64,000 nt of DNA from an uncultured Gammaproteobacteria bacterium. GTDB taxonomy: Bacteria > Patescibacteriota > Patescibacteriia > UBA1558 > GWA2-36-10. The notes beneath the pieces were generated by a model that worked only from the letters and a program-made list of their open reading frames with translations, was not told the origin of the DNA and did not search any database. The stretch is taken from the NCBI GenBank assembly GCA_964633905.1, contig CAZWIT010000001.1, forward strand, positions 141,861 to 205,860. The letters run 5' to 3'. The position numbers were made by a program, and so were the translations under genes. Positions 105 through 23,229 of this stretch are shown here, one piece after another. How positions within the stretch are numbered: the stretch's first letter is position 1; every line of letters starts with the position of its first letter.

Positions 105-1238
105 ATGGACTCCAAAGATAGTATTAAATTTAAATATTATTGGTTTTTGCTATTTTTATTAATAGTTTCAATATTTTTTTACTTTTATTTACAGCAAGAA
201 AATAGCCTTTTTTTAAAACGCGATTTAAGTTCTGGCTTTAATAAGCCTAGGTTAATAAGCAATACTCAAACAGAAAAGCTAGTAGAAACTCCGATAATCT
301 TAGAGCCTGAAAGTAAGACTTTAGATTTTTTGTTTTTTGGTGATATTATGCTAGATCGCAATGTTGGTACTAAAATTGCTAAAGATGGTTTAGATCCATT
401 ACTAGTTAATTTGGCGGGCGTAGATAAAAGTTTTTTTTCCGACTATGATTTAGTTTCAGCGAACCTTGAAGGCGCAGTAACTATTGCCGGAGCTCATTAC
501 GCGCCAGTGGCTGCTAATGATTTTGCTTTTAGTCCAGAAGTAGTAAGTGCTTTGCAAAATTATAATTTTAATTTTTTTAATATTGCCAATAACCATTTAA
601 CAGATCAAGGTCAAAAGGGTCTGCAAGAGACTAAAGATAATTTAACAGCCTTGGGTTTAAATTTTTCTGGTTGTCCAGATGCTCAAGTAGGGGAGTGTAG
701 TGCTAAAATTGTTGAAATCAATAATGCCAAAATAGCCATGCTAGGTTTTAGTATGGTTTATAACTCTTTTGATTTATTGGAAGTTAAAAAAATAATTAGT
801 GATTTTAAAAAACAAGCAGATTTAGTAATTGTTAATATTCATTGGGGAGTAGAATACGAACATCAATATAATACGACACAATCAGCAGTAGCTCATGATA
901 TTATTGATAGTGGTGCGGATCTGATTATTGGCCATCATCCTCATGTAGTGCAAGGCTTAGAAATTTATAATAATAAGCCGATTTTTTATTCTTTAGGAAA
1001 TTTTATTTTTGATCAATATTTTTCAGCTGCTACGCAACAAGGCTTAGCGCTAGGATTTAGCATTGACATACAAACTAAAAAAATTGCCATAAACTTATTT
1101 CTTTTATTGTCAAAGAGTTCCCAAGTACAATTAATGCCCAGTGATTTAAAAGATAAATTTTTGGCAGATTTTGTGACTTGGTCAAAATTAAGTCCAGAAC
1201 AAAACAAAGAAATATTAAGCGGTAAAATAAACTTATGA
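105..1238 (+). CDS. CapA-family (PGA_cap) metallophosphatase-like protein with N-terminal TM anchor
   Basis: ORF 377 aa; GHHPHVVQG...LGNFIFDQ motif typical of CapA/poly-gamma-glutamate capsule biosynthesis family. Confidence 0.6.
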   Translation: MDSKDSIKFKYYWFLLFLLIVSIFFYFYLQQENSLFLKRDLSSGFNKPRLISNTQTEKLVETPIILEPESKTLDFLFFGDIMLDRNVGTKIAKDGLDPLLVNLAGVDKSFFSDYDLVSANLEGAVTIAGAHYAPVAANDFAFSPEVVSALQNYNFNFFNIANNHLTDQGQKGLQETKDNLTALGLNFSGCPDAQVGECSAKIVEINNAKIAMLGFSMVYNSFDLLEVKKIISDFKKQADLVIVNIHWGVEYEHQYNTTQSAVAHDIIDSGADLIIGHHPHVVQGLEIYNNKPIFYSLGNFIFDQYFSAATQQGLALGFSIDIQTKKIAINLFLLLSKSSQVQLMPSDLKDKFLADFVTWSKLSPEQNKEILSGKINL

Positions 1239-8614: not shown

Positions 8615-8660
8615 TCAAGCCAGCTTAGTCGCATCTAGTGTGGCTAAGCTGGCTTTTTAT
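8615..8660 (+). terminator. intrinsic terminator after typA
   Basis: aagccagcttag...ctaagctggctt hairpin then TTTTTATT. Confidence 0.5.
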
Positions 8661-8734: not shown

Positions 8735-8878
8735 ATGATGGCGAGTAAGGCAACAAAAGAAAAAGATAGTCTGCCCACTTGGGCTATAGTAGTTATACTA
8801 GTTGGATTTATTTTGCTCTTTATTATTGGTGGCGATAATTTAGCCAATGTTTTGCGTAGATGGTTTAAATTTGCCTAA
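8735..8878 (+). CDS. small membrane protein (47 aa) with strong SD
   Basis: AAGGAGG 5 nt upstream of ATGATG; single TM helix; below the 60-aa cutoff of the ORF track. Confidence 0.4.
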   Translation: MMASKATKEKDSLPTWAIVVILVGFILLFIIGGDNLANVLRRWFKFA

Positions 8879-9001
8879 AAGATATTTTGTTGACTGCTTG
8901 ATGCCTATAGTATCGAGCAGTTTTTCAATTATGACAAATTTTGACTTTATGTTATAATAATCTTGTTTATTAACATATAATATATTTTATATTTTAAAAT
9001 T

Positions 9002-12000
9002 ATGATTAAAAAATTATTTTCTAAGGAGTATCTAAAAGGTACGGCTAAAAGAAAAGTAGTAGCAATAATTGCTATAATTATTTCTGTCGGACTGGTGCTA
9101 GCATCGGTTTTTTATTTTTCTGGCGGCTGGGATAGATTTAAAGTAAAATTTGGCAAACAGCCGAGTTTGTTTGATGGTTTTTCTAAATTGATTTTAAATG
9201 GGGCTAATGCTCAAGATAATTTTGATTTAGAAGCAGTGGGTGCTGATAGTCTAGGTATTGATGTTGATACCAGCTTTATTTTGACTAGTAAAGATGATGT
9301 TAGTACTGAAGATGTTGAGAAAATTATTAAGCTTAGCCCAGCAATAGCTTATGCTTTGGAAGAGAAGGATAAAAACAAATGGGAAATTAAGCCTAAAGAG
9401 CCGTTAAATCCTAATGACATTATTCGTATTTCTATGGCCACGGCTTATGTGGCTGAAGAAGGTAAAGAGCAGAGTCGTTATTATGATTGGGCTTTTCAGG
9501 TAAAAGATAGCTTTAAGATTTTAAATACTATTCCGCGTGATACAGGCGTGAGCGTGCCGGTAAATTCTGGTATTGAAATCACTTTTAGCCATGAAAATTT
9601 TTATGACTATGAAAAATATTTTAGTTTAGAGCCTAGTGTTGAAGGTAGATTTGAAAAACATGGTCGTACTTTAGTTTTTGTGCCTAAAGAGCCACTAGCT
9701 CTTAGTCAGATTTATCGCGTTACTCTTAAGCAGGGATTAGCCTTGTCCGATAGCCAGGAAGTGTTAGCAAGTGATTATACTTTTGCTTTTGAAACTATCC
9801 AAAAGAAATTTCAATTAAGATCAAGTGATCGTGATCCTTGGCTTTATTTGCACGAAAAATTACAGGATTTTGCTATCAATGAAGCGCCTTTATTGTTTTT
9901 ATCAGCTATGAATATTCCCCAAGATACTCTAGAAGTAAATGTTTATCCTTTAGCTGGACAGTCTGAATATATTGAAATTTTAGATAAACGTGATCAATAT
10001 CCCTGGTGGTCTTATTCTAAAGATAATCAATTGGTAGATTTACAAAATAAAAATAAATTAAATTCTTGGAAATTAAAAATTGAACAACAAAATAACAATC
10101 AATTTATTCATTTTCCTGAAGGCTTACCAAAAGGTTATTTTGTGGTAGAAATAAAAAATGGAGATATTAATGATCAGGCAATTTTACAGATTAGTAATGC
10201 TTCGGCTTACGTAAATGTTGCTAAAGATAAAACAGTAGTTTGGGTAGCAGATTTAGCTGCTAAAAAGCCAGCCAGCAATGCCCAAGTAGAGTTATTGGGA
10301 GATAGTCAAAAATATAATGGTGATGCGCAAGGAGTGGCTAGTTTTACTACACCTGGTCAACTAACTAAAGAAGCTTTTGATAAAAAAGATAATAAACGTT
10401 ATTACTTTAAGGCTAGCTTTGGCGATGAATCATTAATTATACCAGCCTCTTATCTTTCTCCTTATTATGGTTATTGGAGTAATGATATTCAAGCAAATTA
10501 TTGGCAGTATTTTTATACTGACAGGCCTTTATATCAGCCGACTGATACGATTAAATTTTGGGGCTTGCTTAAATTAAGAAATAAACAAGATAGTAGTAAT
10601 GATCAAATGAAAGTTGAGCTTTATAAAGCTGGCTATGTTGATTATTATTATCGTCCAGTAATGATTTCTGAGCAGAGTTTAAGTATAGATAGCGATGGTA
10701 TTTATAGTGGTCAAATAGATATTAAGGATTTACGTTCGGATTATTATTATTTACAAGTTAAAGTTGGCGAGCAAATAGTAGCCACTAAGTATTTACAAGT
10801 TAATCCTTATGAAAAACCAGCCTATAACTTGACTTTAACTCCAGAAAAAAAAGCTGCTTTTGCTGGTCAAGAAATTAAATTAACAGGCTTGGCTACTTAT
10901 TTTGAGGGAACGCCAGTACCAAATTTAGCTTTAGTTTTTAATACTGGTAGTGGCTCTCAAAAAGTTACAACTGATTCAGAGGGTAAGGTTAATTTAGTTT
11001 ATACGGAAAAATATAATGATTGTCAAAGTGAATATAGTTGTTGGCCAAGGAATGCTTGGTTAGAGTTAAGGCCAGAATCATCAGAACTGGCTGATATTTC
11101 AGCTAGTGCTAGCTTAACTTTTTATGGACCTAGTGTTTATGCTACTCAAAAAGTTACTTATTCAGACACTGCTAAAGGACGTTTAGAAATTAAAACTAAA
11201 AAAGTTGATTTAAATAAAGCAGAAACTCCTTATTGGTGGGGATATGATGATAAAGAAGCGCAGATTGCTCCTAATGTAAAAATAGAAGGCGAGGTTAAAC
11301 AAATTAATTATAAGCGCATAGAAACTGGCACAGCTTATGATTTTATTAATAAAGTTTCCCATAAAACTTACCGTTATGAGCGCAGTGAAAAAATAGTTGA
11401 TAATTTTGTCGGTATTAGCGATGGTAATGGTACTTATGTTTATGAACGTCAAGTCGAGCCAGAAACATCATATGAGATTAGTTTGAAATATTATGATAGT
11501 GAAGGCAGGTATGACGTCACGCGGTCTTATATGTATTATAGCGTTGGTAATAGAATATATAATTATAATGGATATAATTTTGATTATTATCATTTAAAAT
11601 TAGACAAAGAAGAATATTCTGTTAGCGATGAAGTAGTAGTTGATTTTTTGAAAAATGAAGAAAATCTACCAAGCAATGATAATAATTATTATTTGTATTT
11701 ACAGCATCAAAATGGTCTACGCGAATATGCTGTGACTCAAAATTCTAAATATGCCTTTTTCTTTACTAATGATGATATTCCCAATGTTAATTTGACTGGA
11801 GTTTATTTTAATGGCAGGGCTTTTATAAATACTTGGGGAGATTCAGTGCGCCTTAAAAAGGCCGATAAAACCATGAGTATTGATATTAAGACTGATAAAG
11901 AAAAATATCAGCCTGGTGAAGAAGTAAAATTAGATATTGTTACTAAAAATGCTAAAGGTGAGCCAGTGAGTGCAGCCGTTAATTTGAATTTAATTGACGA

Positions 12001-14419
12001 AGCATTTTATGCGGTAATGGACGACCAGGCTCATCCGATTGAATCAATTTATACTGATGTTGGCTCAGGCGTGATTTATACTAATTTTAGTCACCGTACT
12101 GCTTCTACTGATATGATGCGAGCTAATAGTATGGGTGCAGAAAAAGGTTGTTTCTTGTCAGGTACCGATATTTTGATGGCTGACGGTAGCTCAAAGAATA
12201 TCGAAGACGTGATCGTTGGTGATCAAGTTTTGACTTTAGCTGATCCGAGGGAGAGTAGGAAAACGGTCGGTACTGTCACTGAACTATATCGTCATACGGT
12301 TGGTAAATATTTGATTATTAATAATAAGCTAAAAGTAACTCCAGAGCATTTAATTTATACTAATTTTAGCTTTCGTCCAGCTTCTAGTTTAAAAATCGGT
12401 GACTGGTTGCTGACAGCTGATAATGAATTAATCTATATTAATTCTATAGAAACTAAAGACGAAATAGTGCCAGTTTATAATTTTAGAGTGGATCCGCAAC
12501 ATACTTTTTTTGCTAATGGATTTTTTGTTCATAATGAAAAAGGTGGTGGACCTAGAGAATTTTTTACCGATGCGGCCCTATTTCAAACAGTTAAAACCAG
12601 TAGTAATGGTGCAGTAAGCACTAGCTTTAAGTTGCCAGACAATATCACTTCTTGGCGGGTAACAGCTCAAGGCGTGAGTTCTAATATTGATGTTGGTTTA
12701 AATGTTTCTAAAATTCCAGTATCTTTGCCAGTTTTTGTGGATGTTACTATTGGTAAAGAATATTTAAGTGGTGATGAGCCAGTCGCTCGTTTGCGCTCTT
12801 TTGGTTCAGTTTTAAATAGTACTGATAGTTTGACTATGAGTTTATCAGCTCCTGATTTAGGCATTGAGACTCCGCAAACTAAAACTACGACTGCTTTTAA
12901 GTCCGAGTACTTTACTTTGCCTAGTTTAAGCGAGGGTAGCTACGACATTGTTTATTCTTTAGATTCAAGTAAGGGCAAAGACAGTGTTAAGTTACCATTA
13001 AAGGCTTTGAGCTCACTACTTACTGCCCAGTCTACTAATATTCAGGAGGCAACAGCCGATTTAGTAGTAGAAAATAAATCCAAGATACCATTGGCTGTTA
13101 ATTTTTCCGATCGAGAACGTAGCGCTGTCTTTAAAACTTTGGCTAAACTGACTTGGTCCGGTGGCGCTCGGATTGATCAGGGCTTAGCTAGAAAGATGAG
13201 TAGGCAGATATTAGAAGAAAAATTTGGCTGGCATAAATCTGATCCAGAATTTTCAGCTTTTAAATATCAAATGGCTAGCGGCGGTTTGACACTTTTGCCT
13301 TATAGTAGCGAAGATCTAGAATTATCAGCTCGAGTCGCAGCTTTGCATGTCAACGGTTTTGATAATATGGCTTTAACAAATTATTTTTTCAAAAAACTTG
13401 AAGATAAAAAAAGCACTCCCGAAGAAGTGACATTGGCCTTGTATGGCTTGTCAGCTATGGGTGAGCCAATTTTACCTAGACTTGAGGCTTGGGCAAAACG
13501 CGAAGATTTAAAACCAAAAGAACGTTTATATTTAGCTTTAGCTTATTATCAAGCTGGCTCTAGTGAAAAAGCGCGGGATATTTATTTTAATATTATGGAG
13601 CAATATGCCCAGGTTAAAGAGCCGCATGTTATTGTTAAAGTTAGTGATAACGAAGATGAGGTGTTAGAATTTACTACTTTAACAGCAGTGCTGGCAGCTT
13701 ATTTAAATGAAGCGCAGCAATATGGCATGATTGATTGGTTGCATTACTATCGACCTAATGATATTTTGTTATATTTAGAAGATTTAAATTATGCCATTGC
13801 TCACTTGCATAATCTAACGGACACTAACAGAAGTGTTAAATTTAGTGTTAACAATGAAGAAGTGACAGCTGAATTGAAGATGCCAAGCTTTTCTTATGCT
13901 TTTGAGTTAGCGGCGGGGCAGTCGTTAAAAGTTTTAAACGCTGATTCAGATATTATGTTGGCGACTAGTCAGCCAGTGCCGATTAGTCTTAGTGATATTA
14001 CTCCTGATGCTAGTCTGGTTTTAAAAAGAGAATATTTTGTAAATAATAAAAAAGTTAATACTTTTAAAGAAAATGATTTGATTGAAGTTAGATTATATAC
14101 TGATTTTAAAGAAGGCGCTTTAGATGGTTCTTATCAGATTACGGATGTGTTGCCAGCTGGCTTGTTGCCAATGAGCAGAGTCTATAATGGCTATAAGACT
14201 GAGGATTGTCATTATTATTACCCTTATTATTTAGAAGGACAAAAAGTAAAATTTATAGTTAGTAAAAATTGGAAGAAAAGTGTTTGCTCTGACTATATTA
14301 AATACTATGCTCGCGTCAAAACCAAAGGTAAATACAGGGCCGAGCCAGCTATTATACAATCAATGCTCAATAGTGATTATCTAAATTTTTCTAGTGAAGA
14401 TAAGGTGCAGATTGAATAA
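9002..14419 (+). CDS. giant (1805 aa) membrane-anchored extracellular multidomain protein; possibly alpha-2-macroglobulin/Ig-like-domain family, with embedded Hint/BIL domain
   Basis: Single uninterrupted ORF; N-terminal TM anchor; long beta-rich middle; helical C-terminal third; no CxEQ thioester motif, so the A2M assignment is tentative. Confidence 0.8.
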   Translation: MIKKLFSKEYLKGTAKRKVVAIIAIIISVGLVLASVFYFSGGWDRFKVKFGKQPSLFDGFSKLILNGANAQDNFDLEAVGADSLGIDVDTSFILTSKDDVSTEDVEKIIKLSPAIAYALEEKDKNKWEIKPKEPLNPNDIIRISMATAYVAEEGKEQSRYYDWAFQVKDSFKILNTIPRDTGVSVPVNSGIEITFSHENFYDYEKYFSLEPSVEGRFEKHGRTLVFVPKEPLALSQIYRVTLKQGLALSDSQEVLASDYTFAFETIQKKFQLRSSDRDPWLYLHEKLQDFAINEAPLLFLSAMNIPQDTLEVNVYPLAGQSEYIEILDKRDQYPWWSYSKDNQLVDLQNKNKLNSWKLKIEQQNNNQFIHFPEGLPKGYFVVEIKNGDINDQAILQISNASAYVNVAKDKTVVWVADLAAKKPASNAQVELLGDSQKYNGDAQGVASFTTPGQLTKEAFDKKDNKRYYFKASFGDESLIIPASYLSPYYGYWSNDIQANYWQYFYTDRPLYQPTDTIKFWGLLKLRNKQDSSNDQMKVELYKAGYVDYYYRPVMISEQSLSIDSDGIYSGQIDIKDLRSDYYYLQVKVGEQIVATKYLQVNPYEKPAYNLTLTPEKKAAFAGQEIKLTGLATYFEGTPVPNLALVFNTGSGSQKVTTDSEGKVNLVYTEKYNDCQSEYSCWPRNAWLELRPESSELADISASASLTFYGPSVYATQKVTYSDTAKGRLEIKTKKVDLNKAETPYWWGYDDKEAQIAPNVKIEGEVKQINYKRIETGTAYDFINKVSHKTYRYERSEKIVDNFVGISDGNGTYVYERQVEPETSYEISLKYYDSEGRYDVTRSYMYYSVGNRIYNYNGYNFDYYHLKLDKEEYSVSDEVVVDFLKNEENLPSNDNNYYLYLQHQNGLREYAVTQNSKYAFFFTNDDIPNVNLTGVYFNGRAFINTWGDSVRLKKADKTMSIDIKTDKEKYQPGEEVKLDIVTKNAKGEPVSAAVNLNLIDEAFYAVMDDQAHPIESIYTDVGSGVIYTNFSHRTASTDMMRANSMGAEKGCFLSGTDILMADGSSKNIEDVIVGDQVLTLADPRESRKTVGTVTELYRHTVGKYLIINNKLKVTPEHLIYTNFSFRPASSLKIGDWLLTADNELIYINSIETKDEIVPVYNFRVDPQHTFFANGFFVHNEKGGGPREFFTDAALFQTVKTSSNGAVSTSFKLPDNITSWRVTAQGVSSNIDVGLNVSKIPVSLPVFVDVTIGKEYLSGDEPVARLRSFGSVLNSTDSLTMSLSAPDLGIETPQTKTTTAFKSEYFTLPSLSEGSYDIVYSLDSSKGKDSVKLPLKALSSLLTAQSTNIQEATADLVVENKSKIPLAVNFSDRERSAVFKTLAKLTWSGGARIDQGLARKMSRQILEEKFGWHKSDPEFSAFKYQMASGGLTLLPYSSEDLELSARVAALHVNGFDNMALTNYFFKKLEDKKSTPEEVTLALYGLSAMGEPILPRLEAWAKREDLKPKERLYLALAYYQAGSSEKARDIYFNIMEQYAQVKEPHVIVKVSDNEDEVLEFTTLTAVLAAYLNEAQQYGMIDWLHYYRPNDILLYLEDLNYAIAHLHNLTDTNRSVKFSVNNEEVTAELKMPSFSYAFELAAGQSLKVLNADSDIMLATSQPVPISLSDITPDASLVLKREYFVNNKKVNTFKENDLIEVRLYTDFKEGALDGSYQITDVLPAGLLPMSRVYNGYKTEDCHYYYPYYLEGQKVKFIVSKNWKKSVCSDYIKYYARVKTKGKYRAEPAIIQSMLNSDYLNFSSEDKVQIE
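12149..12535 (+). other. Hint (intein-like / BIL) domain, about 129 aa, inside the giant CDS (C1050..N1178)
   Basis: Block A CFLSGTDILMADG, block B TPEH, block F/G VYNFRVDPQHTFFANGFFVHN; the residue after HN is Glu, not C/S/T. Confidence 0.7.
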
Positions 14420-15318
14420 TGAAGTTAGTAGTTAAAATAATAATCGTTTGTGTTATTTGTGGGGCACTAATAATTTTTAGTGCCTTTTGGCGTCGTGATT
14501 TTGATCAAGTTAACTTAGAGGATAATACAACTACTTTATTTTTAAGACCAATTGAATCACAGGCAATGTTTTATGATCCTATGAATTTTCAGCAGGCGAT
14601 ATTGTCAGCAGAAAATGTGCATTCTAAAAATAATATACAAGCGATTATGGTGCCACAGCATCTAGTAGCTTCTAGTTTAATGGCTCAAGCAATAAAGCAA
14701 GCGGCTGGCCGTGAGATTGAAACAGTCTTTATTATTGGACCTAATCATTTTAATGTTGGTACTGCGGATATTGCGACAGCTAGGGCAGTTTGGAAAACAG
14801 ACTTAGGTGATGTCGAAAGCGATACAAAATTGGTTAATAAATTTATCACAGATTTAAATTTACTCTCTGGACCGGAAATCTTTAGCAACGAGCATGCTGT
14901 TGGCGCTTTGGTGCCTTTTGTAAAATATTATCTACCGCAAGCCAGAATCGTGCCAATTGTTTTTCGTTCTTATGCTGATTTAGGCGATGTGGATCAAGTA
15001 GTAAATTGGTTAGCTGATAATTTACCCAAAAAAAGTTTAGTTATTTATTCTATTGATTTTTCCCATTATTTACCTAGGGAGCAAGCAGATGAAATGGATA
15101 AATTGACTAGAGAATATATTATCAATAATGATTTAGACCAGATCATAAAATTAGGCGATGATAATTTAGATTCACCAGCTAGTCTGGCTACGGCTTTATC
15201 TTTAGCGCAGAAAAAAAATTGGCACTTAGAAATTGTAGCCAATAAAAATTCGGATGATTTTACTAAAGTGAAGTCAAAACAAACTACTAGTTATTTTTTA
15301 ATTAATTTTTCGGATTAG
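14419..15318 (+). CDS. MEMO1 / AmmeMemoRadiSam-system protein B family (class III extradiol dioxygenase-like fold), with N-terminal TM
   Basis: 299 aa; GPNH and NEHAVGALVPF motifs; start codon overlaps stop of giant gene (TAATG). Confidence 0.5.
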   Translation: MKLVVKIIIVCVICGALIIFSAFWRRDFDQVNLEDNTTTLFLRPIESQAMFYDPMNFQQAILSAENVHSKNNIQAIMVPQHLVASSLMAQAIKQAAGREIETVFIIGPNHFNVGTADIATARAVWKTDLGDVESDTKLVNKFITDLNLLSGPEIFSNEHAVGALVPFVKYYLPQARIVPIVFRSYADLGDVDQVVNWLADNLPKKSLVIYSIDFSHYLPREQADEMDKLTREYIINNDLDQIIKLGDDNLDSPASLATALSLAQKKNWHLEIVANKNSDDFTKVKSKQTTSYFLINFSD

Positions 15319-15517
15319 TTTTTTTATTATTTTCACTATAAATAGCTCCAGTTGGGCAGAGTTCTTGTATATCTTTAGTTAAAATAGCATCAGGATTAAT
15401 TATTTGAATTTTGTTATTTTTAAATGCAAAGATATCAGGATAAAATTGCGCGCAAATACCGCAGGCAATACAGCTGCCGGTTTTTATTTTGATTGGTTGA
15501 TTTGCTTTTTCTGCCAT
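15302..15517 (-). CDS. 4Fe-4S ferredoxin
   Basis: 71 aa; CIACGICAQFYP cluster motif; 3' end overlaps convergent upstream gene. Confidence 0.7.
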   Translation of the reverse strand: MAEKANQPIKIKTGSCIACGICAQFYPDIFAFKNNKIQIINPDAILTKDIQELCPTGAIYSENNKKTNPKN

Positions 15518-15529
15518 TTTTCTAATTTT

Positions 15530-16981
15530 TTAGAGTTTACCTAAATCAAGAGTTTGAGTAAATTTTATTTCTTTTACAAAATCTGACATATGGCTAATTA
15601 AAATTATAGCGCCCTGATATTCATTAATGGCTTGGGCAATTACCGGTATGTGTCTAAAATTAATATGGTTAGTTGGCTCATCTAAAATTAATAAGCCTGG
15701 CTTCATGAGCACCAAGCGAGCAAAGGAAAGCAAGCCTTTTTGGCCTTCAGATAGATTAGAAATTTTGTGCCCCATGAGCTCACCAGTAATTAAAAAACCA
15801 GCAGCTACAGCTCGCATTTCTTGAATATCAATTTTATCAGTTAAAACAGATTGTAAAGAGTCAAAAACAGTTTGTTCATAATCCAAAGTGGCAAAGTCTT
15901 GGCTATAGTAGCCGATTTTAGTATTTTCTAAAATAATGGCACCTTCATTATGATTATCGACTAAAGAGCGTAGCAGGGTGCTTTTGCCAATGCCATTTGG
16001 TCCCGAAACAAGCAAGCGGTCTTTTTGTCTTAAAACAATTTCTACATCTTTTACTATTGGCTCGTGGTTTTTGATTATTTTTACAGCATTGATAGTAACG
16101 ATATTACCGACAATGCCTTGAGCAGGAATTGTAAATTCTCTAATGGTTTTATCTTCGCGTCTGACATCCACTTTATTTTCTTCTAGTTCTTCAATCTCTT
16201 CTTTTAATTTGCTAGCTAAGCGGCGCATTTTTCCACCTTTATTAGAGAAAAAATTTACTTTTTGTTTATTATCTTCAATTTCTTTTTCTAGTTGAGCGTT
16301 TTTCTTTCTTTCTCTTTCAATTCTTTCATTGATCTCATCAACTACGGAATAATAGTCGCCCACATAAGTCTCTATTTTTTTAGTAAAAACATCAAGGTAA
16401 ATTACGCCTTCAGTAAAACAATTTAAAAAGTCAGCGTCATGGGAAATGACAATGACAGTTTTATCATACATGACTAAAAAGGAAATTAAGTGATCAATAC
16501 CAGCTTTATCTAAATTGTTAGTGGGCTCATCTAGTAGTAAAATATCAGGATTTTGGATTAAAGCAAAAGCAAGTAGGATGCGAGCTTGTTGACCACCGGA
16601 TAATTCCGATAATTTTCTTTCTAAGGGAATATTTAAGTTAACAGCTTCTAATACTTTATTAATTTGACTTTTTAAATTACCAGGTACTTCCAAAAAAGCT
16701 TTAGCAAAGTAATCTTCAATATTCAAATCTAAGTCGTTTTTATCAATTACTTGAGCAGCGGTAGCAATAGTAGCGTTATTGGTAATAAAAACATTGCCTT
16801 TAGTTGGCTTGATGTCACCTTTGATTAATTTAAAAATAGTACTTTTGCCAGCGCCATTTTGACCCATTAAAGTTATTTTAGCACCAGTTCTGACACTAAA
16901 AGAAACATCGTCGAGTAATAATTTTTTCTCGGCGTATTCAAATTTTACATTACTAAAGCGCAAGATTACTTCTTCGGCCAT
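15530..16981 (-). CDS. ABC-F family ATPase (two tandem ABC domains, no TM)
   Basis: 483 aa; two Walker A (GQNGAGKST, GPNGIGKST) and two LSGGQ/LSEGQ signatures with charged linker. Confidence 0.85.
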   Translation of the reverse strand: MAEEVILRFSNVKFEYAEKKLLLDDVSFSVRTGAKITLMGQNGAGKSTIFKLIKGDIKPTKGNVFITNNATIATAAQVIDKNDLDLNIEDYFAKAFLEVPGNLKSQINKVLEAVNLNIPLERKLSELSGGQQARILLAFALIQNPDILLLDEPTNNLDKAGIDHLISFLVMYDKTVIVISHDADFLNCFTEGVIYLDVFTKKIETYVGDYYSVVDEINERIERERKKNAQLEKEIEDNKQKVNFFSNKGGKMRRLASKLKEEIEELEENKVDVRREDKTIREFTIPAQGIVGNIVTINAVKIIKNHEPIVKDVEIVLRQKDRLLVSGPNGIGKSTLLRSLVDNHNEGAIILENTKIGYYSQDFATLDYEQTVFDSLQSVLTDKIDIQEMRAVAAGFLITGELMGHKISNLSEGQKGLLSFARLVLMKPGLLILDEPTNHINFRHIPVIAQAINEYQGAIILISHMSDFVKEIKFTQTLDLGKL

Positions 16982-17400: not shown

Positions 17401-18681
17401 ATGAAAATAAAAAGTATTGAAGCGCTAGAGATTTTAGACTCACGTGGTAACCCGACTGTCGAAGCTAGTGTGATTTTAGAAGATGGTTCTGTGGGCAGAG
17501 CAGCGGTGCCATCTGGTGCTTCCACTGGTAGCTATGAAGCTGTCGAATTACGTGATAATGATCCCAAGCGTTATAATGGTTTAGGTGTTTTAAATACAGT
17601 TAAAAATATTGAAACTATTATTGCCCCAGCTTTAGTGGGTCTTGAAGCAGGTGAGCAAAACCAGATTGACCAAGTTATGATTGATTTAGATGCTACTGAT
17701 AATAAAGCTAAGCTTGGCGCTAATGCTATTTTAGCAGTATCTCTGGCTACTGCCCGTGCTCAAGCTGAGTCAGAAAAAAAACCACTCTATGAATATTTAA
17801 GTAAATTTAATCCTGATTTTGCTGGCGATTATTTTTTGCCTTTGCCTATGATGAATATTATGAATGGCGGTAAGCATGCTAATTGGGCAACTGATATTCA
17901 GGAATACATGATTTTACCAATTGGCGCTAAGAATATGACTGATGCTGTTAGGATGTGTGCAGAAGTATATTTTAACTTAAAGAAAATTTTAAAAGCCAAA
18001 GGCTATGAAATCAGCGTTGGTGATGAAGGTGGTTTTGCACCAGCTGTCAAATCAAACAGTGAACCATTTGAATTAATGTCAGAAGCTGTACAAATTGCAG
18101 GCTACACCTTAGGTACAGATATTATTTTTGGCATTGATGCAGCTGCTACTGAGTTTTACCAAAATGGTGTTTATGAACTTAAAAAAGAAGCTAAAAATTT
18201 AAATAGTGCCGAACTAGCTGATTTTTATTTAGAAATTATTAAAAAATACCCAATCAAAACCGTGGAAGATATTTTTAGTGAAGATGATTGGAATGGTTTT
18301 AAAGATTTTTTAAACAAAACTGAAAATAAGATCCAGATTGTTGGTGATGATTTGTATGTGACTAATATCAAACGCTTGCAGCAGGGCATAGACACTAAAG
18401 CTTCTAATTCAATTTTAATCAAATTAAATCAAATCGGCACACTTAGCGAAACTATTGAGGCTATACTTTTGGCTCGTAAAAATAACATGACAGCTGTTAT
18501 TTCCCATCGTAGTGGTGAAACTGAAGACGCTTTTATTGCCGATCTTGCAGTAGCTTTAGGTACTGGGCAAATAAAGACAGGCGCACCAGCGCGTAGTGAA
18601 CGTACAGTAAAATATAATCGTTTACTTAAGATAGAAAAAGAATTAGGCGCCAAAGCTATTTTAAAGAAATTTCCTTTTTAG
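17401..18681 (+). CDS. eno: enolase (phosphopyruvate hydratase)
   Basis: 426 aa; the whole sequence is colinear with enolase (SRGNPTVE..., SHRSGETED). Confidence 0.95.
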
Positions 18682-18682
18682 T

Positions 18683-20188
18683 ATGTCAAATAAAGTAGTT
18701 TTAGTGATTTGTGATGGCTTGGGTTATCGAGAAGCCAAAGAACACAATGCAGTGCTGGCAGCAGACACTCCTAATTTAGATAGTTTTAAAGCCAGTTTCC
18801 CTTTTGCCCTTTTGGCAGCCAGCGGTGAAGCTATTGGCTTGCCCGAAGGGCAGATGGGTACCTCCGAAGCCAATCATCTAGTAATTGGTTCAGGTCGGAT
18901 TATTTATCAAAATTTAGTTAAAATAAATCGGGCTGCTAAAAATAAAGAATTAGAAAGCAATTCAGCTATTTTGGAAGCTTTTGAGCATGTTAAAAAACAT
19001 AATAGCGCTTTACATATCAAAGGTATGGTGTCAGATGGCGGCGTCCATGGTCATATTGAGCATCTAAAAGCTTTAGTAGCAGCTGCTAAAGTGCATGGTG
19101 TTAGTAAAATATTTTTACATTTATTTACCGATGGTCGCGATGTAGCTCCGCAAAGTGCTAAAAATTATATTCAAGATTTAGAAAACTTTTTAGAAAACGC
19201 TGGTGTTGGTAAAATTGCTTCCTTGGGTGGCAGATATTGGGGTATGGATAGAGATAATAATACTGATAGAATTGAAAAACATTTTTTGGTCATGACTAGG
19301 GGTTCCGAGCAAAAATTTAAAAAGGCCTTAGATATTATCGAGCATAATTATCAGGCTGGTTTAAATGATGAATTTATTGAACCAGCTTCGATAGAGCTTG
19401 AGGAAGAAGGTGAGGGCTTAATTGCTGCTAACGATGCAGTAGTGTTTGCTAACTTTCGTTCTGATAGAGCCAGGCAGATTACTAAAAGGATCATTGATGA
19501 AAGAATTGATAATCTAAAATATGTAGCTATGACCAAATACGATGACGAATTAGATGTTCGCGTTGCTTTTGGTCCAGAAGAAATTAATAATTGTTTAGCG
19601 GAAGTTTTAGCTAAGCGCAATTTGAAACAACTAAAAGTTACCGAAACAGAAAAATTTACGCACCTGACTTTTTTCTTTAATGCGCAAAGATATGAGCCTT
19701 GGGAAAAAGAAGAGCGGATTATGATTGCCAGTAATAAAGATGTGAAAACTCATGATGAAAAACCAGTAATGAAAGCTAAAGAGATTGCTCAAGCTGTAGT
19801 GTCAGCTATTGAAAGTGATCAATATGATTTTATTGCGGTCAATCTTACTAATTGCGATATGGTGGGACATTCTGGCAATTTTCCAGCTATTGTCAAAGCA
19901 GTTGAGGCAGTGGATAGTGCCTTAGGTGAGATTGCGCAAAGTGCTTTAAAACAAGCTTATACTTTATTAATTACGGCTGATCATGGTAATGCTGAAGAAA
20001 CTTTTGATCCAAAAATAAACCAAGCCATCACTTCGCACACTCTCAATGCAGTACCGTTTTATTTGATTTCAAAAAAGTATGATAAAATAAAGCGTAGTCA
20101 AGGAAACTTGAGTGATGTAGCGCCGACTATTTTGAAATTAATGGATTTAGAAATTCCAGCGGAAATGACAGGTGAGTCATTTGTTTAA
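18683..20188 (+). CDS. gpmI: 2,3-bisphosphoglycerate-independent phosphoglycerate mutase
   Basis: 501 aa; iPGM N- and C-terminal motifs (VLVICDGLG, ADHGN). Confidence 0.9.
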   Translation: MSNKVVLVICDGLGYREAKEHNAVLAADTPNLDSFKASFPFALLAASGEAIGLPEGQMGTSEANHLVIGSGRIIYQNLVKINRAAKNKELESNSAILEAFEHVKKHNSALHIKGMVSDGGVHGHIEHLKALVAAAKVHGVSKIFLHLFTDGRDVAPQSAKNYIQDLENFLENAGVGKIASLGGRYWGMDRDNNTDRIEKHFLVMTRGSEQKFKKALDIIEHNYQAGLNDEFIEPASIELEEEGEGLIAANDAVVFANFRSDRARQITKRIIDERIDNLKYVAMTKYDDELDVRVAFGPEEINNCLAEVLAKRNLKQLKVTETEKFTHLTFFFNAQRYEPWEKEERIMIASNKDVKTHDEKPVMKAKEIAQAVVSAIESDQYDFIAVNLTNCDMVGHSGNFPAIVKAVEAVDSALGEIAQSALKQAYTLLITADHGNAEETFDPKINQAITSHTLNAVPFYLISKKYDKIKRSQGNLSDVAPTILKLMDLEIPAEMTGESFV

Positions 20189-20204
20189 AATTATTAGCAA
20201 ATAA

Positions 20205-20250
20205 AATAACCTCACTGGCATGTCGCATTTAGCACAAGTGAGGTTATACT
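20205..20250. terminator. bidirectional intrinsic terminator
   Basis: aacctcactgg...ccagtgaggtt hairpin between convergent genes. Confidence 0.5.
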
Positions 20251-20267
20251 ATTAGCTAGAAGCTTGC

Positions 20268-20453
20268 TTATTTCTTTTTTTGCTGATGATGTCGCCAGTC
20301 CAATGCAAGCATGGTTAGCAGATAGGCGCATGCTGGGCCCGTGCCATAAATATCTTTTATTATCCAGCCTAGGGCAGTGATAGCTGCCGCAATGAGAAAG
20401 CGGGTAGTTTCGCTCTTTAGGCCGTAAAACCAGTGAAAAAAACGACTGATCAT
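20268..20453 (-). CDS. small membrane protein (61 aa from internal ATG with AGGAG SD; 80 aa if from first ATG)
   Basis: Minus-strand ORF; SD AGGAGCAAGG precedes ATGATC; one TM helix; GC above local background. Confidence 0.35.
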   Translation of the reverse strand: MISRFFHWFYGLKSETTRFLIAAAITALGWIIKDIYGTGPACAYLLTMLALDWRHHQQKKK

Positions 20454-20546
20454 CCTTGCTCCTGTCGTTTGGGTTTGATGAACAAATTTAATTAATAACA
20501 TATTTTTCATTTTTTGTCAATCATAATATAAAAAATAAATATATAT

Positions 20547-21980
20547 ATGCATAAAAAACAAACCAAAATTATTGCAACTATTGGGATTAAACGCGATCCA
20601 GAATTTATTGAGGCCATGTATCGGGCTGGGACTGATGTGATGCGCTTAAATACTGCTCATCAAGATTTAAAAGGGTCTTTGGTAGTTATTAATAATATTA
20701 GGAAAGTTTCTGATCGGATTGCTATTTTGCTTGATACCAAAGGTCCAGAAGTAAGATTCACACAGCTTGCAGAAGATTTGTCTTTGCGCAAAGGGGATCT
20801 GCTCAAAATTTGCGGCACTGGTGATAATCTGCTTTCTACTAGGGATATGGTTTATGTTAATTATGCTAATTTTCATAAAGACATACCATTGCAGGCTGCT
20901 ATTTTTGTTGATGATGGTAAAATGGAACTCAAAGTAGAAAGAAAAAATAAGAATTATTTGCTTTGTCGGGTGACTAATGATGGTCTAATAAAATCAAATA
21001 AAAGCGTCAATGTTCCGGGAGTGCATTTAAATTTGCCAACCTTGAATAAAAAGGACAAAGAATTTATTAATTTTGCTATTAAACATAAAATTGATTTTAT
21101 TGCCCATTCTTTTGTGAGAAACAAAGAAGATATTATTACTATTCAGAAAATATTAGACGCTAAAAAAAGTAAAATAAAAATTATTGCCAAAATTGAAAAT
21201 CTCGAGGGAGTCGAACATATTGATGAAATTTTAGAGCATGCTCACGGTATTATGGTAGCTAGAGGCGACTTAGGCATTGAAATTGCGGCTGAAGAAATTC
21301 CGCTGATTCAAAAAGAAATTATTAGAAAATGTATTATTAGTCACAAGCCAGTAATTGTGGCTACGCAGATGCTACAATCCATGGTGCATAACCCGCGACC
21401 AACTCGAGCCGAAGTTTCTGATGTGGCTAATGCAGTGATTGATGGTGCAGATGCAGTCATGCTTTCTGAAGAAAGCGCTAGCGGCAATTATCCTTTGGCA
21501 GCAGTAGAAATCATGACTCGGATTGTCAGGCGTGTAGAGATTAGTAATGAAAAACATCATTTTAGTAATTTGCCGGAGATTAATACTAAAAATAAAGTAG
21601 CTCATTATTTGATTTCGTCAGCAGTACAGGCGACCAAAGAATTGGATATCAAAGAAATTATCATGACTTCTACTAGCGGTCATAGTGCTCAAGTAATGGC
21701 TTCGTATCGTGGTCGGACACCAGTTTATGTCAAATGTTTTGACAAAACTATTGCTAGACAATTAGCTTTGACTTATGGTATCAACGCTCACTATGTCAAA
21801 AAAGAGCAGGATCATCGTAAATTTATCACAGAATTGTTTAAATATTTAGTTAAAAAAGAAAAACTTGAACTCCAAGATCAGGTCATATTTTTGGCTCGCG
21901 ATATTGGTAAGGGCTCAGGCGCTACTTTTATGGAAATTTGCCAGGTAGCTGATTATGTTAAATTAAAATCAGGTAAATAA
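20547..21980 (+). CDS. pyk: pyruvate kinase
   Basis: 477 aa; PK barrel motifs (MVARGDLGIEI, TQMLQSM). Confidence 0.9.
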   Translation: MHKKQTKIIATIGIKRDPEFIEAMYRAGTDVMRLNTAHQDLKGSLVVINNIRKVSDRIAILLDTKGPEVRFTQLAEDLSLRKGDLLKICGTGDNLLSTRDMVYVNYANFHKDIPLQAAIFVDDGKMELKVERKNKNYLLCRVTNDGLIKSNKSVNVPGVHLNLPTLNKKDKEFINFAIKHKIDFIAHSFVRNKEDIITIQKILDAKKSKIKIIAKIENLEGVEHIDEILEHAHGIMVARGDLGIEIAAEEIPLIQKEIIRKCIISHKPVIVATQMLQSMVHNPRPTRAEVSDVANAVIDGADAVMLSEESASGNYPLAAVEIMTRIVRRVEISNEKHHFSNLPEINTKNKVAHYLISSAVQATKELDIKEIIMTSTSGHSAQVMASYRGRTPVYVKCFDKTIARQLALTYGINAHYVKKEQDHRKFITELFKYLVKKEKLELQDQVIFLARDIGKGSGATFMEICQVADYVKLKSGK

Positions 21981-22020
21981 TTTTATTCCCTCAAATTTTA
22001 AATTGTGCTATGATGAATTT

Positions 22021-23229
22021 ATGAAAAAATTTATTTTATTTATTTTTATTTTAAATATAATTTTGCCAATGCCAGTCTGGGCAGCTACTAGTCCAGCGCA
22101 AATTCAAGCAGGTAAATTTATAATTCAATCAGAAAGTTATGACCGCTTGTGGTATGTTGATCCGCAAGAACAGACTCGTTACCTACTTAAAGATGCTCAA
22201 GGCACTATGGATTTATTACGTCTTAAGGCTACTGGCATTAGTAACAAAGATTTAGCCAAAATTAAAACTACAGCCAAAGGCAGTTTTAATGCTAAATTAA
22301 CTAATCGTTTTAAGGGTAAATTTTTGTTAGCAGTCGAAAATCAAGGTCAAATTTGGTATATTGATCCAGCTTCTGGCATTCGTTATCACTTAAAAGATGG
22401 TCAAAGTGCTTATGATTTTTTTCTAAAAAGAGCCACTAAACTCAAAAATAAAGAATTAACTAAAATTCCAGTTACCAATAAACAAATAATTGCCAGCTAT
22501 ACTTTTGATCCTGTTACTTACGCTGTTTTTGAAGACGGTGAATATTTAGAAGGCAGTTATGCTGATGAGATTTTGCCAATTGCTTCTTTGTCCAAATTAA
22601 TGACAGCTTTGGTATTACTTGATCAAAAACCAGATTGGCAGAAAAAAATTACTATTACCAAAGCGCAGATAAATTATCCTAAAATATATGTTGGTAATGA
22701 CGCTACTTCAGAAGTAAATATTGCGGCTGGCCAGACTATTAGTTTTTATGACTTATGGGTGGCAATGTTGCTGGCATCTTCAAATCAATCAGCTGTAGCC
22801 TTAGCAGAATCCACTGGCATGACTAGAGGGGATTTTGTAAAATTGATGAATGTTAAAGCTAAAGAATTAGGTTTAAGTAAAACAATTTTTTATGATATTG
22901 CTGGACTTGATGAGGGCAATGTCTCAACTGCTAAAGAAATGGCTATGATTGCTAAAGCAGCTTTTGCTAAACCAGAAATAGTAGAAGCTACTGCTAAGGG
23001 ACAATATACCTTGCACATGATTAAAGAGGATGGTAGCACTACTACTTGCGAGGCAGTAAATCGTAATACTAGTTTGATGGCTTTTGGTCCGCAAGCTGCC
23101 AAAAGTGGCTTTTTAGTAGAAGCCCAACGCACTGCTGCTTTGCAAAAGGGTACAAAAATTATTACTGTTTTACATGCCAAAAGTATGGCTGAGCGCAATA
23201 AAGTTTTAGCTAAATATTTGGGTGAGTAG
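22021..23229 (+). CDS. D-alanyl-D-alanine carboxypeptidase (peptidase S11) with N-terminal tandem duplicated domain and signal peptide
   Basis: SxxK active-site motif (ASLSKLMT), SN motif; two about 100-aa N-terminal repeats; ATG at 22021 preferred over upstream TTG. Confidence 0.7.
   Translation: MKKFILFIFILNIILPMPVWAATSPAQIQAGKFIIQSESYDRLWYVDPQEQTRYLLKDAQGTMDLLRLKATGISNKDLAKIKTTAKGSFNAKLTNRFKGKFLLAVENQGQIWYIDPASGIRYHLKDGQSAYDFFLKRATKLKNKELTKIPVTNKQIIASYTFDPVTYAVFEDGEYLEGSYADEILPIASLSKLMTALVLLDQKPDWQKKITITKAQINYPKIYVGNDATSEVNIAAGQTISFYDLWVAMLLASSNQSAVALAESTGMTRGDFVKLMNVKAKELGLSKTIFYDIAGLDEGNVSTAKEMAMIAKAAFAKPEIVEATAKGQYTLHMIKEDGSTTTCEAVNRNTSLMAFGPQAAKSGFLVEAQRTAALQKGTKIITVLHAKSMAERNKVLAKYLGE

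Follow-up and report, generated by a model that had tools for sequence, protein, structure and literature searches.

Thioester-less Macroglobulin with a Hint Domain at Its Bait Position and a Conserved MEMO-Like Partner Gene in Patescibacteria

We analyzed a 64,000-nucleotide stretch of DNA (here called the window) from contig CAZWIT010000001.1 of assembly GCA_964633905.1 and found on its forward strand two adjacent genes, one for a giant, membrane-anchored α2-macroglobulin (A2M)-family protein of 1805 amino acids (aa) (positions 9002..14419) and one for a membrane-anchored, MEMO-like protein of the LigB superfamily with 299 aa (14419..15318). Both assignments are based on open reading frame (ORF) calls, Pfam, and predicted folds, and that of the A2M also on profile searches. 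The giant protein has no thioester motif, and a Hint domain of the bacterial intein-like (BIL) kind occupies the position of its bait region. The domain identities, the folds, the absence of the thioester, the Hint site with its catalytic residues, and the synteny of the two genes are firm. As for function, we favor, with modest confidence, a two-gene surface module in which a thioester-less A2M trap or sensor would be self-processed by its BIL domain and complexed with the MEMO-like partner. The ORF pair, its coordinates, and the N-terminal transmembrane (TM) anchor of the giant protein had been reported in a first-pass annotation of the window, and all of them were confirmed in the sequence.

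A macroglobulin without the thioester motif

Pfam searches of the giant protein returned domains in the order of an A2M, i.e., Big_5, bMG3, MG2, A2M_BRD, Hint, A2M (PF00207), and bMG10. The N-terminal immunoglobulin (Ig)-like and macroglobulin (MG) domains, all encoded on the forward strand like the rest of the gene, span positions 9512..10660 (Big_5 at residues 171-265, bMG3 at 398-454, and MG2 at 503-553). The bait-region domain A2M_BRD (residues 864-1004; 11591..12013) was matched with an E value of 1.1e-11 and was modeled as a beta domain. PF00207 (residues 1192-1258; 12575..12775), which is the MG domain after the bait, carries the motif PDNITSWR, and bMG10 lies near the C terminus (residues 1674-1789; 14021..14368). 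Between these two, the alignment and the predicted fold place a helical region resembling the thioester domain (TED), at approximately residues 1371-1602 (13112..13807), which agrees with the TED-like character that the first-pass annotation had assigned to the C-terminal helical region.

A family profile built from 43 members was searched against the PDB, and it matched Escherichia coli ECAM/YfhM (1e-17), Salmonella A2M (2e-13), human A2M (3e-11), TEP1 (2e-9), and C5 (approximately 1e-7). In these alignments, profile positions 500-670 corresponded to MG domains of TEP1 and C4, and positions 1504-1797 corresponded to ECAM residues 1305-1609. The fold evidence covers residues 860-1805, for which an AlphaFold model was obtained with a mean pLDDT (predicted local distance difference test) of 87.5 and a pTM (predicted template modeling score) of 0.69. 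When this model was compared with the PDB by Foldseek, the best match was native ECAM (5a42; 2.6e-33), followed by Salmonella A2M (4u48), and further matches were activated ECAM, CD109, A2ML1, frog and human A2M, and C3, C4, and C5; the E values of the best matches ranged from 1e-33 to 1e-23. The A2M-like architecture proposed earlier is thereby borne out by the Pfam order, by the ECAM profile match, and by top structural matches among both bacterial and animal A2Ms, and the A2M fold was recovered by profile search and structure prediction alike. We conclude with high confidence that the giant protein is a genuine member of the A2M family, from a thioester-less clade.

The protein begins with MIKKLFSKEYLKGTAKRK, followed by a hydrophobic stretch at approximately residues 19-41, which was read from the sequence as a signal anchor, i.e., a TM helix (9056..9124, forward strand). 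Because the 18-residue tail before this helix is rich in Lys and Arg, the positive-inside rule predicts an N-in, C-out topology with a cytoplasmic tail.

The thioester motif CxEQ was found nowhere in the giant protein, and at the TED position it was found in 0 of the 108 closest relatives (P0001-P0108), so that its absence, already noted in the first-pass annotation, extends to the whole clade. The motif was confined to distant relatives (P0109-P0120), in which the Pfam TED model was matched as well. Where GCxEQ would stand, the giant protein reads GARIDQ. In the TED-like region, Arg-1390 is invariant and Gln-1393 nearly invariant across the family. The protein contains five Cys residues in total (positions 674, 680, 1050, 1736, and 1762); the count of five Cys outside the Hint domain given earlier was in error, as Cys-1050 is Cys1 of the Hint domain itself and four lie outside.

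Among Hint-less relatives from Clostridia, a dockerin type I domain is present in six (P0065, P0066, P0069, P0070, P0072, and P0077, for example from Acetivibrio cellulolyticus), and such A2Ms would be displayed on the cellulosome scaffold. The loci nearest to these dockerin-bearing A2Ms in the tree (L051 and L064) have no downstream MEMO gene.

Hint domain in the bait linker

The Hint domain (residues 1050-1178, 129 aa; 12149..12535, forward strand) was identified by Pfam, by PDB profile search, and by alignment, and its boundaries match those implied by the first-pass division of the protein into residues 1-1049 and 1179-1805. It starts with Cys-1050, has TPEH as its block B, and ends in VHN, in which the terminal His-Asn pair includes Asn-1178; the residue that follows is Glu-1179. 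On its N-terminal side lies a linker that ends in GAEKG and stands at the bait-region position (residues 1005-1049; 12014..12148), and on its C-terminal side lies a second linker, EKGGGPREFFTDA (residues 1179-1191; 12536..12574), which repeats EKGG; both linkers were delimited by alignment and in the model. The best Pfam model was PT-HINT (PF07591; E value, 4e-9), and the best PDB match was the Clostridium thermocellum BIL domain 2lwy, with E values of 6e-9 for the single sequence and 2e-19 for the profile. No homing endonuclease insert was present in the 129 aa of the domain, and the homing-endonuclease match that PADLOC reported is confined to the splicing block formed by the first 38 residues.

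The Hint domain occupies the bait-region position of the A2M. This placement follows from its location between A2M_BRD and PF00207, from the alignments with human A2M and C5, and from the disordered and variable character of its flanks. Profile positions immediately after the Hint domain align with residues 722-803 of human A2M, whose bait region we take to span approximately residues 690-728, and profile positions 850-1020, before the Hint domain, align with C5 residues 456-628, upstream of the site at which the beta and alpha chains are separated. The low-confidence segments of the model are mainly the Hint flanks, in which residues 1024-1047 are predicted to be disordered and residues 1180-1182 have a pLDDT below 50. 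In the Hint-less Clostridial relatives the same linker is highly variable in length and sequence, as baits are. In the window it is rich in Gly and contains a conserved motif, and the Hint domain splits it in two.

The insertion site is identical in every Hint-bearing relative, reading GAE[K/G]G(G) before the domain, C...VHN for the domain itself, and (x)[E/D/Q]KGG(G)xRExFxDAxLF after it, and Hint-less relatives read through as AE[K/G]GGGG..RxDFxDTAxF. We counted residues in 78 cleanly parsed Hint copies; raw counts of the +1 residue were made over 81 phmmer hits, three of which were misparsed. Both Cys1 and the terminal His-Asn were present in 78 of the 78 copies, the T and H of block B were conserved, Gly stood at position -1 in nearly all, and the length was about 129 aa in all. 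The raw +1 residues were Glu (30), Asp (26), Gln (13), Ala (4), Ser (4), Thr (2), Gly (1), and Lys (1), with no Cys; among the cleanly parsed copies, about 68 had Glu, Asp, or Gln and about 5 had Ser or Thr, and approximately 92% had no nucleophile at this position. It has been reported that type A BIL domains have no +1 nucleophile, end in His-Asn, and splice by aminolysis, yet give mainly N- and C-terminal cleavage products (PMC4031507, PMC7664689). By these published defining features the Hint domain is a type A BIL, and its catalytic residues are intact. A classical (class 1) intein was rejected on account of the +1 Glu, the length of 129 aa, and the lack of an endonuclease insert.

Besides, we observed that the motif (A)EKGG stands on both sides of the Hint domain, i.e., GAEKG before its Cys1 (residues 1045-1049; 12134-12148) and EKGGG after its His-Asn (residues 1179-1183; 12536-12550). 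A relaxed form of the motif (E-x-G before and [E/D/Q/S/A]-K-G after the domain) occurred in 62 of the 78 Hint-bearing copies, and about half of the Hint-less relatives have a single E.GG or GGG run in the bait linker. In many Hint-less relatives there is a single AE[K/G]GGGG. A sequence of the form Ala-Glu-Lys-(Gly)n recalls the peptidoglycan stem peptide with its glycine bridge, which may be a coincidence.

We next consider the distribution of the insertion. An exhaustive search with residues 990-1260 yielded 376 clusters (50% identity) at E values of 1e-30 or lower, which indicates a large family of Hint-bearing A2Ms; the best 150 of the 376 clusters were mostly proteins of about 1800 aa with an end-to-end match near residues 1000-1300. 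The Hint-bearing loci in a set of 80 from representative genomes belonged to Falkow-, Peregrini-, Morani-, Collier-, Kerfeld-, Uhr-, Doudna-, Sacchari-, and Peribacteria, and all Clostridial and Chloroflexota relatives were Hint-less. The Hint-bearing A2M family is apparently restricted to Patescibacteria. Pairwise identities of the Hint domains correlated with those of the exteins (Pearson coefficient, 0.81), and the Hint domain was the more conserved of the two, with 43 to 44% identity where the exteins had 29 to 33%. Because of this correlation, the size of the family, and the ordinary GC content of the Hint-coding DNA, we conclude that the Hint domain has been kept and passed on vertically with its host protein; a recent horizontal acquisition was rejected, as both the ordinary GC content and the codivergence with the host protein speak against it. 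In a crude neighbor-joining tree, some Hint-less Patescibacterial proteins were mixed among Hint-bearing ones, which implies either losses or repeated gains at the single site.

Several metagenome-assembled genomes with Hint-bearing A2Ms (L006, L007, L008, L009, L013, and L025) are titled "uncultured Gammaproteobacteria" or "uncultured Pseudomonadales". These labels are probably wrong, because the A2Ms of these genomes cluster with those of Collierbacteria and other Patescibacteria. We also observed other proteins in the library with 2 to 12 tandem Hint copies, 36 to 44% identical to the Hint domain of the A2M (P0250, P0254, P0255, P0257, P0275, P0316, P0333, P0349, P0354, P0365, and P0367), which recall the published multi-BIL (polyubiquitin-like) precursors. 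The A2M Hint domain therefore belongs to a wider pool of BIL domains.

MEMO-like partner and organization of the locus

The stop codon of the A2M gene (TAA, 14417-14419) and the start codon of the MEMO-like gene (ATG, 14419-14421) have one base in common, so that the two genes overlap in the sequence TAATG (14417..14421, forward strand), as described in the first-pass annotation. The junction reads ...ATT GAA TAA TG AAG in the DNA, and the longer stretch is ATTGAATAATGAAG; an AAGGTG sequence lies about 14 nucleotides (nt) 5' of the MEMO-like ATG.

We examined whether this pairing is conserved among related genomes. The forward test was applied to those representative-genome loci with at least 900 nt downstream of the A2M (74 of 80), and of these 74, 54 had a MEMO-like gene as the next gene downstream, in the same orientation, with a median gap of -6 nt. 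In the reverse test, applied to metagenome MEMO-like loci with at least 600 nt upstream, an A2M gene was directly upstream in 60 of 66. The pairing suggested earlier is thus conserved in both directions. It was observed both in Hint-bearing Patescibacteria and in Hint-less Clostridia, Peptococcia, Tepidanaerobacter, and Dehalococcoidia (Chloroflexota); in the complete genome of Dehalobacter sp. DCM and in a Gracilibacter-type contig the A2M and MEMO-like genes overlap by 4 nt each.

The MEMO-like protein scored 76 bits against the Pfam family Memo (PF01875; cutoff, 27) and 109 bits against TIGR04336 (cutoff, 26). In its model (pLDDT, 95), the N-terminal helix (residues 2-26) is connected to a globular domain by a short tether that is disordered. 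The best PDB matches of the model were MEMO1 structures (7kq8, 7l5c, and 3bcz), with E values of approximately 1e-14 and a template modeling (TM) score of 0.72 for iron- or copper-bound human MEMO1, and next came the LigB-type extradiol dioxygenases. In one homologue a clear lipoprotein box (LSGC) replaces the helix, which supports a putative extracytoplasmic, membrane-anchored location for the protein.

Across 46 MEMO-like relatives, His-81, Pro-108-Asn-109-His-110, His-159, Asp-213-Phe-214-Ser-215-His-216, Asp-227, and Asp-251 were invariant. The metal ligands His-49, His-81, and Cys-244 of MEMO1 have been described as counterparts of the His/His/Glu triad of LigB (PMC11081632). In our alignment with human MEMO1, whose residues 39-219 were checked against the search result, His-110 of the MEMO-like protein aligned with His-81 of MEMO1, and position 80/81 aligned at or beside His-49; the motifs GPNH, EH, and DFSH correspond to the metal-site region of MEMO1. 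The earlier description of this protein as MEMO1/AmmeMemoRadiSam-B-like holds for the MEMO fold and the membrane anchor, but the AmmeMemoRadiSam part is a family resemblance only, since the partner genes are absent from the neighborhood: no radical SAM or AMMECR1-like gene was found among the conserved neighbors in 160 loci. Within the 64-kb window, a crude motif test found no CxxxCxxC in stop-to-stop frames longer than 150 aa and no RGCIG-type motif.

Apart from the MEMO-like gene downstream, the only conserved neighbors of the A2M gene were an extracytoplasmic function (ECF) sigma factor gene on its upstream side and a CapA-family gene, each of them in a subset of loci, and neither pbpC nor any other transglycosylase or penicillin-binding protein gene was found among the conserved neighbors. 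The MEMO-like protein is fused to a C-terminal CapA-family domain (PGA_cap) in at least 13 loci (L008, L009, L012, L014, L017, L022, L025, L026, L076, L078, L083, L085, and L153), and a separate PGA_cap gene directly follows the MEMO gene in about a dozen further loci. In the window, Pfam detected a CapA-family (PGA_cap) gene at 105..1238 on the forward strand, 7.8 kb upstream of the A2M gene; this gene may belong to the A2M/MEMO system as a third partner.

An ECF-type sigma-70 gene (Sigma70_r2 and r4_2) overlaps the A2M start in about 22 of the 80 genome loci and in 14 of 80 metagenome loci (ECF-A2M loci, about 600 nt upstream: L010, L011, L013, L015, L016, L018, L020, L024, L028, L031, L032, L035, L038, L039, L042, L058, L060, L073, L075, and L079; L082:2346-2897). 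These sigma-linked loci occur in both Patescibacteria and Clostridia, and their A2Ms have a cytoplasmic extension of 60 to 110 aa before the TM helix, a layout expected of an anti-sigma factor; Pfam searches of these longer N-terminal tails detected no family and no anti-sigma domain. The arrangement in these relatives looks like a cassette of sigma factor, anti-sigma factor (A2M), and MEMO. The A2M of the window has neither a sigma factor gene nor a cytoplasmic extension.

The window is AT rich (GC content of about 33% throughout), and the neighbors of the A2M gene in it are typA, a small ORF, the MEMO-like gene, a ferredoxin gene, and an ABC-F gene. A strong typA terminator was read from the sequence at 8617-8655. 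A promoter-like site (ATGACA, a 16-nt spacer, and TG-TATAAT; 8931..8958, forward strand), recognized as a consensus match of 11 of 12 positions, ends 44 nt before the A2M start, and a terminator-like hairpin (8892-8922) lies 5' of it, after the small ORF. Because of the typA terminator, this hairpin, and the promoter-like site on the 5' side, together with the convergent genes on the 3' side, the A2M/MEMO-like unit appears to be self-contained, with a putative promoter of its own. The small ORF between typA and the A2M gene (8735-8878, forward strand) encodes 47 aa with one predicted TM helix, has a strong AAGGAGG ribosome-binding site, and is flanked by its own promoter-like site and terminator-like hairpin. 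At under 60 aa it was missing from the default ORF list, and a Pfam search gave no match.

On the reverse strand, a convergent ORF of 71 aa (15302..15517) was assigned as a ferredoxin (Fer4_13; E value, 1.7e-5; single cluster). The overlap of this ORF with the 3' end of the MEMO-like gene, pointed out in the first-pass annotation, is real and measures 17 nt, but it is not conserved, as a ferredoxin gene was adjacent to the A2M in 0 of 80 related genome loci. The ferredoxin gene begins 12 nt past the stop codon of a gene for an ABC-F ATPase (ribosome-protection-like, EttA/Uup type) on the same strand, and together the two genes span 15302-16981 (minus strand); given the short gap and the common strand, they are probably cotranscribed, which is an unusual pairing. 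A role of the ferredoxin as a member of the system was rejected on the basis of the 0 of 80 loci and of this apparent grouping with the ABC-F gene, and the overlap is incidental, a local accident of a compact genome. PADLOC gave no defense-system match for any of the three proteins. Farther downstream (17401-23229, forward strand) are ordinary housekeeping genes, for enolase, cofactor-independent phosphoglycerate mutase, and pyruvate kinase, and then for an S11-family D-Ala-D-Ala carboxypeptidase.

Proposed mechanism, alternatives, and relation to known systems

In the mechanism that we propose, the A2M and MEMO-like genes would be translationally coupled and transcribed from their own promoter-like site, and the N-terminal anchor would keep the A2M at the cytoplasmic membrane, exposed on its outer face. 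By analogy with MagD, the A2M might there trap or sense foreign proteases as well as lytic enzymes by a noncovalent, conformational mechanism. A noncovalent role seems the most likely one because the protein has a full MG array, a bait domain, a TED-like domain, and MG10, yet no thioester; the thioester-less MagD of Pseudomonas traps protease noncovalently and depends for its stability on a membrane-anchored partner from its operon (PMC5764988). After export and folding, Cys-1050 would form a thioester with Gly-1049 and Asn-1178 would cyclize, so that the precursor would undergo self-processing at the bait position. This would yield mainly two noncovalently associated chains, i.e., a membrane-anchored N-terminal fragment of about 118 kDa and a C-terminal fragment of about 70 kDa, and a minor product would be a spliced chain with the junction GAEKG-EKGGG, similar to the linker of Hint-less relatives. 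We infer this chemistry from the conserved catalytic residues and the published behavior of BIL domains (PMC4031507, PMC7664689). The autoprocessing may serve maturation, as furin cleavage does for C3, C4, and C5, or may occur only under certain conditions. The MEMO-like protein, predicted to be an extracytoplasmic MEMO fold with conserved His/His/Asp metal-site residues, would form a complex with the A2M, as suggested by the near-obligate synteny, the gene overlap, and the MEMO-CapA fusions; it might be a subunit that stabilizes or anchors the A2M, in the way that MagB serves MagD, or an enzyme that works on the envelope alongside a CapA-family protein.

Several points weigh against this account. 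A self-cleaving bait would be awkward for a trap that is meant to fire only on attack by a protease, and autoprocessing could either arm or discharge it. The presence of Hint-less proteins amid Hint-bearing ones means that the A2M works without the Hint domain, as expected of an element that is merely tolerated. The contact between the A2M and the MEMO-like protein is suggested by gene context, the MEMO gene is missing in 20 of the 74 A2M loci, and both the processing and the trap activity are predictions. With regard to the partner, MEMO1 itself has no agreed molecular function, and where the usual PHH motif has its first His, the protein of the window has Gln (position 80; His in most relatives), next to the invariant His-81. 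Asp-251 probably takes the place of Cys-244 of MEMO1; the profile alignment between the MEMO family and human MEMO1 ended at residue 204, before Cys-244.

The point about tolerance leads to another explanation, which we consider possible but doubtful, that the Hint domain is a degenerate mini-intein that has lost its endonuclease, sits in a permissive loop, and splices out by BIL aminolysis with no part in A2M function, so that the A2M-MEMO operon would be the sole real finding. The alternation of presence and absence at one exactly conserved site among fairly close relatives is what such an element would leave, its splice junction GAEKG-EKGGG would be close to the AE[KG]GGGG linker of Hint-less relatives, and type A BIL domains can splice without a +1 nucleophile (PMC4031507). 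However, approximately 92% of the copies lack that nucleophile, although a single mutation can turn a BIL domain into an efficient splicer (PMC7664689). In a disordered, variable surface loop, moreover, imprecise deletion should be harmless, and a useless element should decay, whereas the Hint domain keeps all its catalytic residues and is better conserved than its host across several hundred 50%-identity clusters. To our knowledge, classical inteins occupy conserved sites of cytoplasmic information-processing proteins and not of exported proteins, which also counts against a mini-intein. At the other extreme, the Hint domain might have been turned into a bait that cleaves itself, and so into a reactive center of a new kind, with thioester, decoy-motif, and anti-sigma extensions; taken as a whole, we think this unlikely. 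The acyl shift at Cys-1050 would then put a thioester at Gly-1049 on the membrane-anchored half, in a family without CxEQ, and an incoming amine or thiol, such as a Lys of a trapped enzyme or a cell wall amine, could attack it to form a covalent link, comparable to that between Hedgehog and cholesterol. Alternatively, a chemical cue could trigger the Gly-1049 thioester and bring about a conformational change without a protease. The repeated Ala-Glu-Lys-Gly-Gly could be a decoy for glycyl-glycine endopeptidases, and in the ECF-linked relatives with a longer tail the A2M might be the sensor domain of an anti-sigma factor, coupling envelope attack to transcription.

Other explanations concern the role of one of the two proteins as a whole. 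It is quite unlikely, in our judgment, that the giant protein serves chiefly for adhesion or host attachment in an episymbiotic Patescibacterium, with the A2M fold as a scaffold and trapping irrelevant. A part in host interaction has been discussed for giant surface proteins of Patescibacteria, A2M homologues among them (PMC9793634), and the N-terminal Big_5 Ig-like domain and the absent thioester would fit, but the full A2M architecture is kept, including the TED-like and MG10 domains, and the A2M-MEMO operon is also found in Clostridia, Peptococcia (Dehalobacter sp. DCM, complete 4.5-Mb genome), Tepidanaerobacter, and Dehalococcoidia, none of which is a known epibiont. A polymorphic toxin, from which the Hint domain would release a C-terminal toxin, is scarcely tenable, even though PT-HINT was the best Pfam Hint model and several relatives bear the NCBI name "polymorphic toxin-type HINT domain-containing protein". 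What follows the Hint domain is an ordinary A2M half (PF00207, TED-like region, and bMG10) that is conserved in Hint-less relatives and not polymorphic, a toxin domain is absent, and the downstream gene is a conserved MEMO-like gene and not a variable immunity gene; this candidate was rejected as contradicted by the domain content. We give almost no credence to the idea that the 299-aa protein is subunit B of a cytoplasmic AmmeMemoRadiSam system that lies next to the A2M by coincidence. The TIGR04336 score (109 bits against a cutoff of 26) and the name "AmmeMemoRadiSam system protein B" on many relatives would point that way, but the N-terminal membrane anchor (with the LSGC lipoprotein box in at least one homologue), the near-obligate A2M linkage in both directions, and the lack of radical SAM or AMMECR1-like genes among the conserved neighbors and, by the crude motif test, of their motifs in the window led us to reject it.

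These findings bear on several questions. The BIL domain stands at what would be the trigger loop of a conformational trap, which makes it a strong candidate for a Hint domain that has been domesticated; it would be a natural case of Hint chemistry outside the cell. For MEMO and AmmeMemoRadiSam-B proteins, whose function is unsettled, a fixed extracellular partner would give a concrete experimental handle, and the sigma-linked relatives suggest a protease-sensing route that could be tested in cultivable Clostridia. Two systematically applied names need correction, "polymorphic toxin-type HINT domain-containing protein" for the A2Ms and "AmmeMemoRadiSam system protein B" for their partners, the latter being misleading for this MEMO subfamily. 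A2M homologues have been noted among the giant surface proteins of Patescibacteria (PMC9793634). In a literature search that left subscription journals outside its scope, no paper was found in which a macroglobulin is joined to a Hint/BIL domain, to a partner of the Memo family, or, in a relevant way, to an ECF sigma or anti-sigma factor.

Among known systems, the Hint domain is closest to the type A BIL domains, such as BIL4 of Clostridium thermocellum (2lwy), with which it shares Cys1, TxxH, His-Asn, the lack of a +1 nucleophile, the mini-intein size without an endonuclease, and the location in an exported protein. It differs in that its place within a conserved multidomain host is always the same, in the bait linker, and in that it is inherited together with this host. 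The proposed processing recalls the furin cut at the beta/alpha junction of C3, C4, and C5, which, judging from the alignment and general knowledge, falls in the equivalent linker after the MG6/bait domain and likewise turns one chain into two. In contrast to the furin cut, cleavage here would be autocatalytic, by way of the Hint domain and a thioester at the new C terminus, so that the resemblance is an analogy and not a homology of the processing step. The MEMO-like protein has the same fold as MEMO1 and AmmeMemoRadiSam B (PF01875, LigB superfamily; TM score of 0.72 to iron-bound MEMO1), but unlike MEMO1 it is predicted to be extracytoplasmic and membrane anchored, is linked to an A2M, is sometimes fused to CapA in relatives, and appears to have the Cys ligand replaced by an invariant Asp.

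Bacterial A2Ms have been described as two types, both in Gram-negative bacteria (PMC5764988). Type I A2Ms (E. coli ECAM/YfhM and Salmonella A2M) gave the best PDB matches in sequence and structure and have a like domain order, and they are also membrane anchored and paired with an envelope-related partner gene. ECAM, however, is a lipoprotein with a CxEQ thioester for covalent protease capture and has PBP1c (pbpC) as its partner, whereas the A2M of the window has neither thioester nor pbpC and carries a Hint domain in its bait. Type II A2Ms (Pseudomonas aeruginosa MagD, of magABCDEF, and E. coli YfaS) are likewise large multi-MG A2Ms without CxEQ. MagD is associated with the cytoplasmic membrane, has coexpressed partners of which one is membrane anchored and needed for stability, and is processed in vivo to a smaller form, which resembles the processing proposed here (PMC5764988). 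The differences from type II are that no mag genes (MagA, B, C, E, and F; yfaSTAQP type) are among the conserved neighbors, the partner being a MEMO fold instead, that the A2M of the window has its own N-terminal membrane anchor in place of a cleaved signal peptide, that the hosts are Patescibacteria, Clostridia, and Chloroflexota and not Gram-negative bacteria, and that a Hint domain stands at the bait position. The A2M-MEMO operon thus represents a third, widespread operonic context for bacterial A2Ms, with a lineage-specific, Hint-occupied bait and with functions predicted from sequence and structure models, and it is one that occurs in bacteria without an outer membrane, where the A2M would stand on its own TM helix beside an extracytoplasmic MEMO-fold partner.

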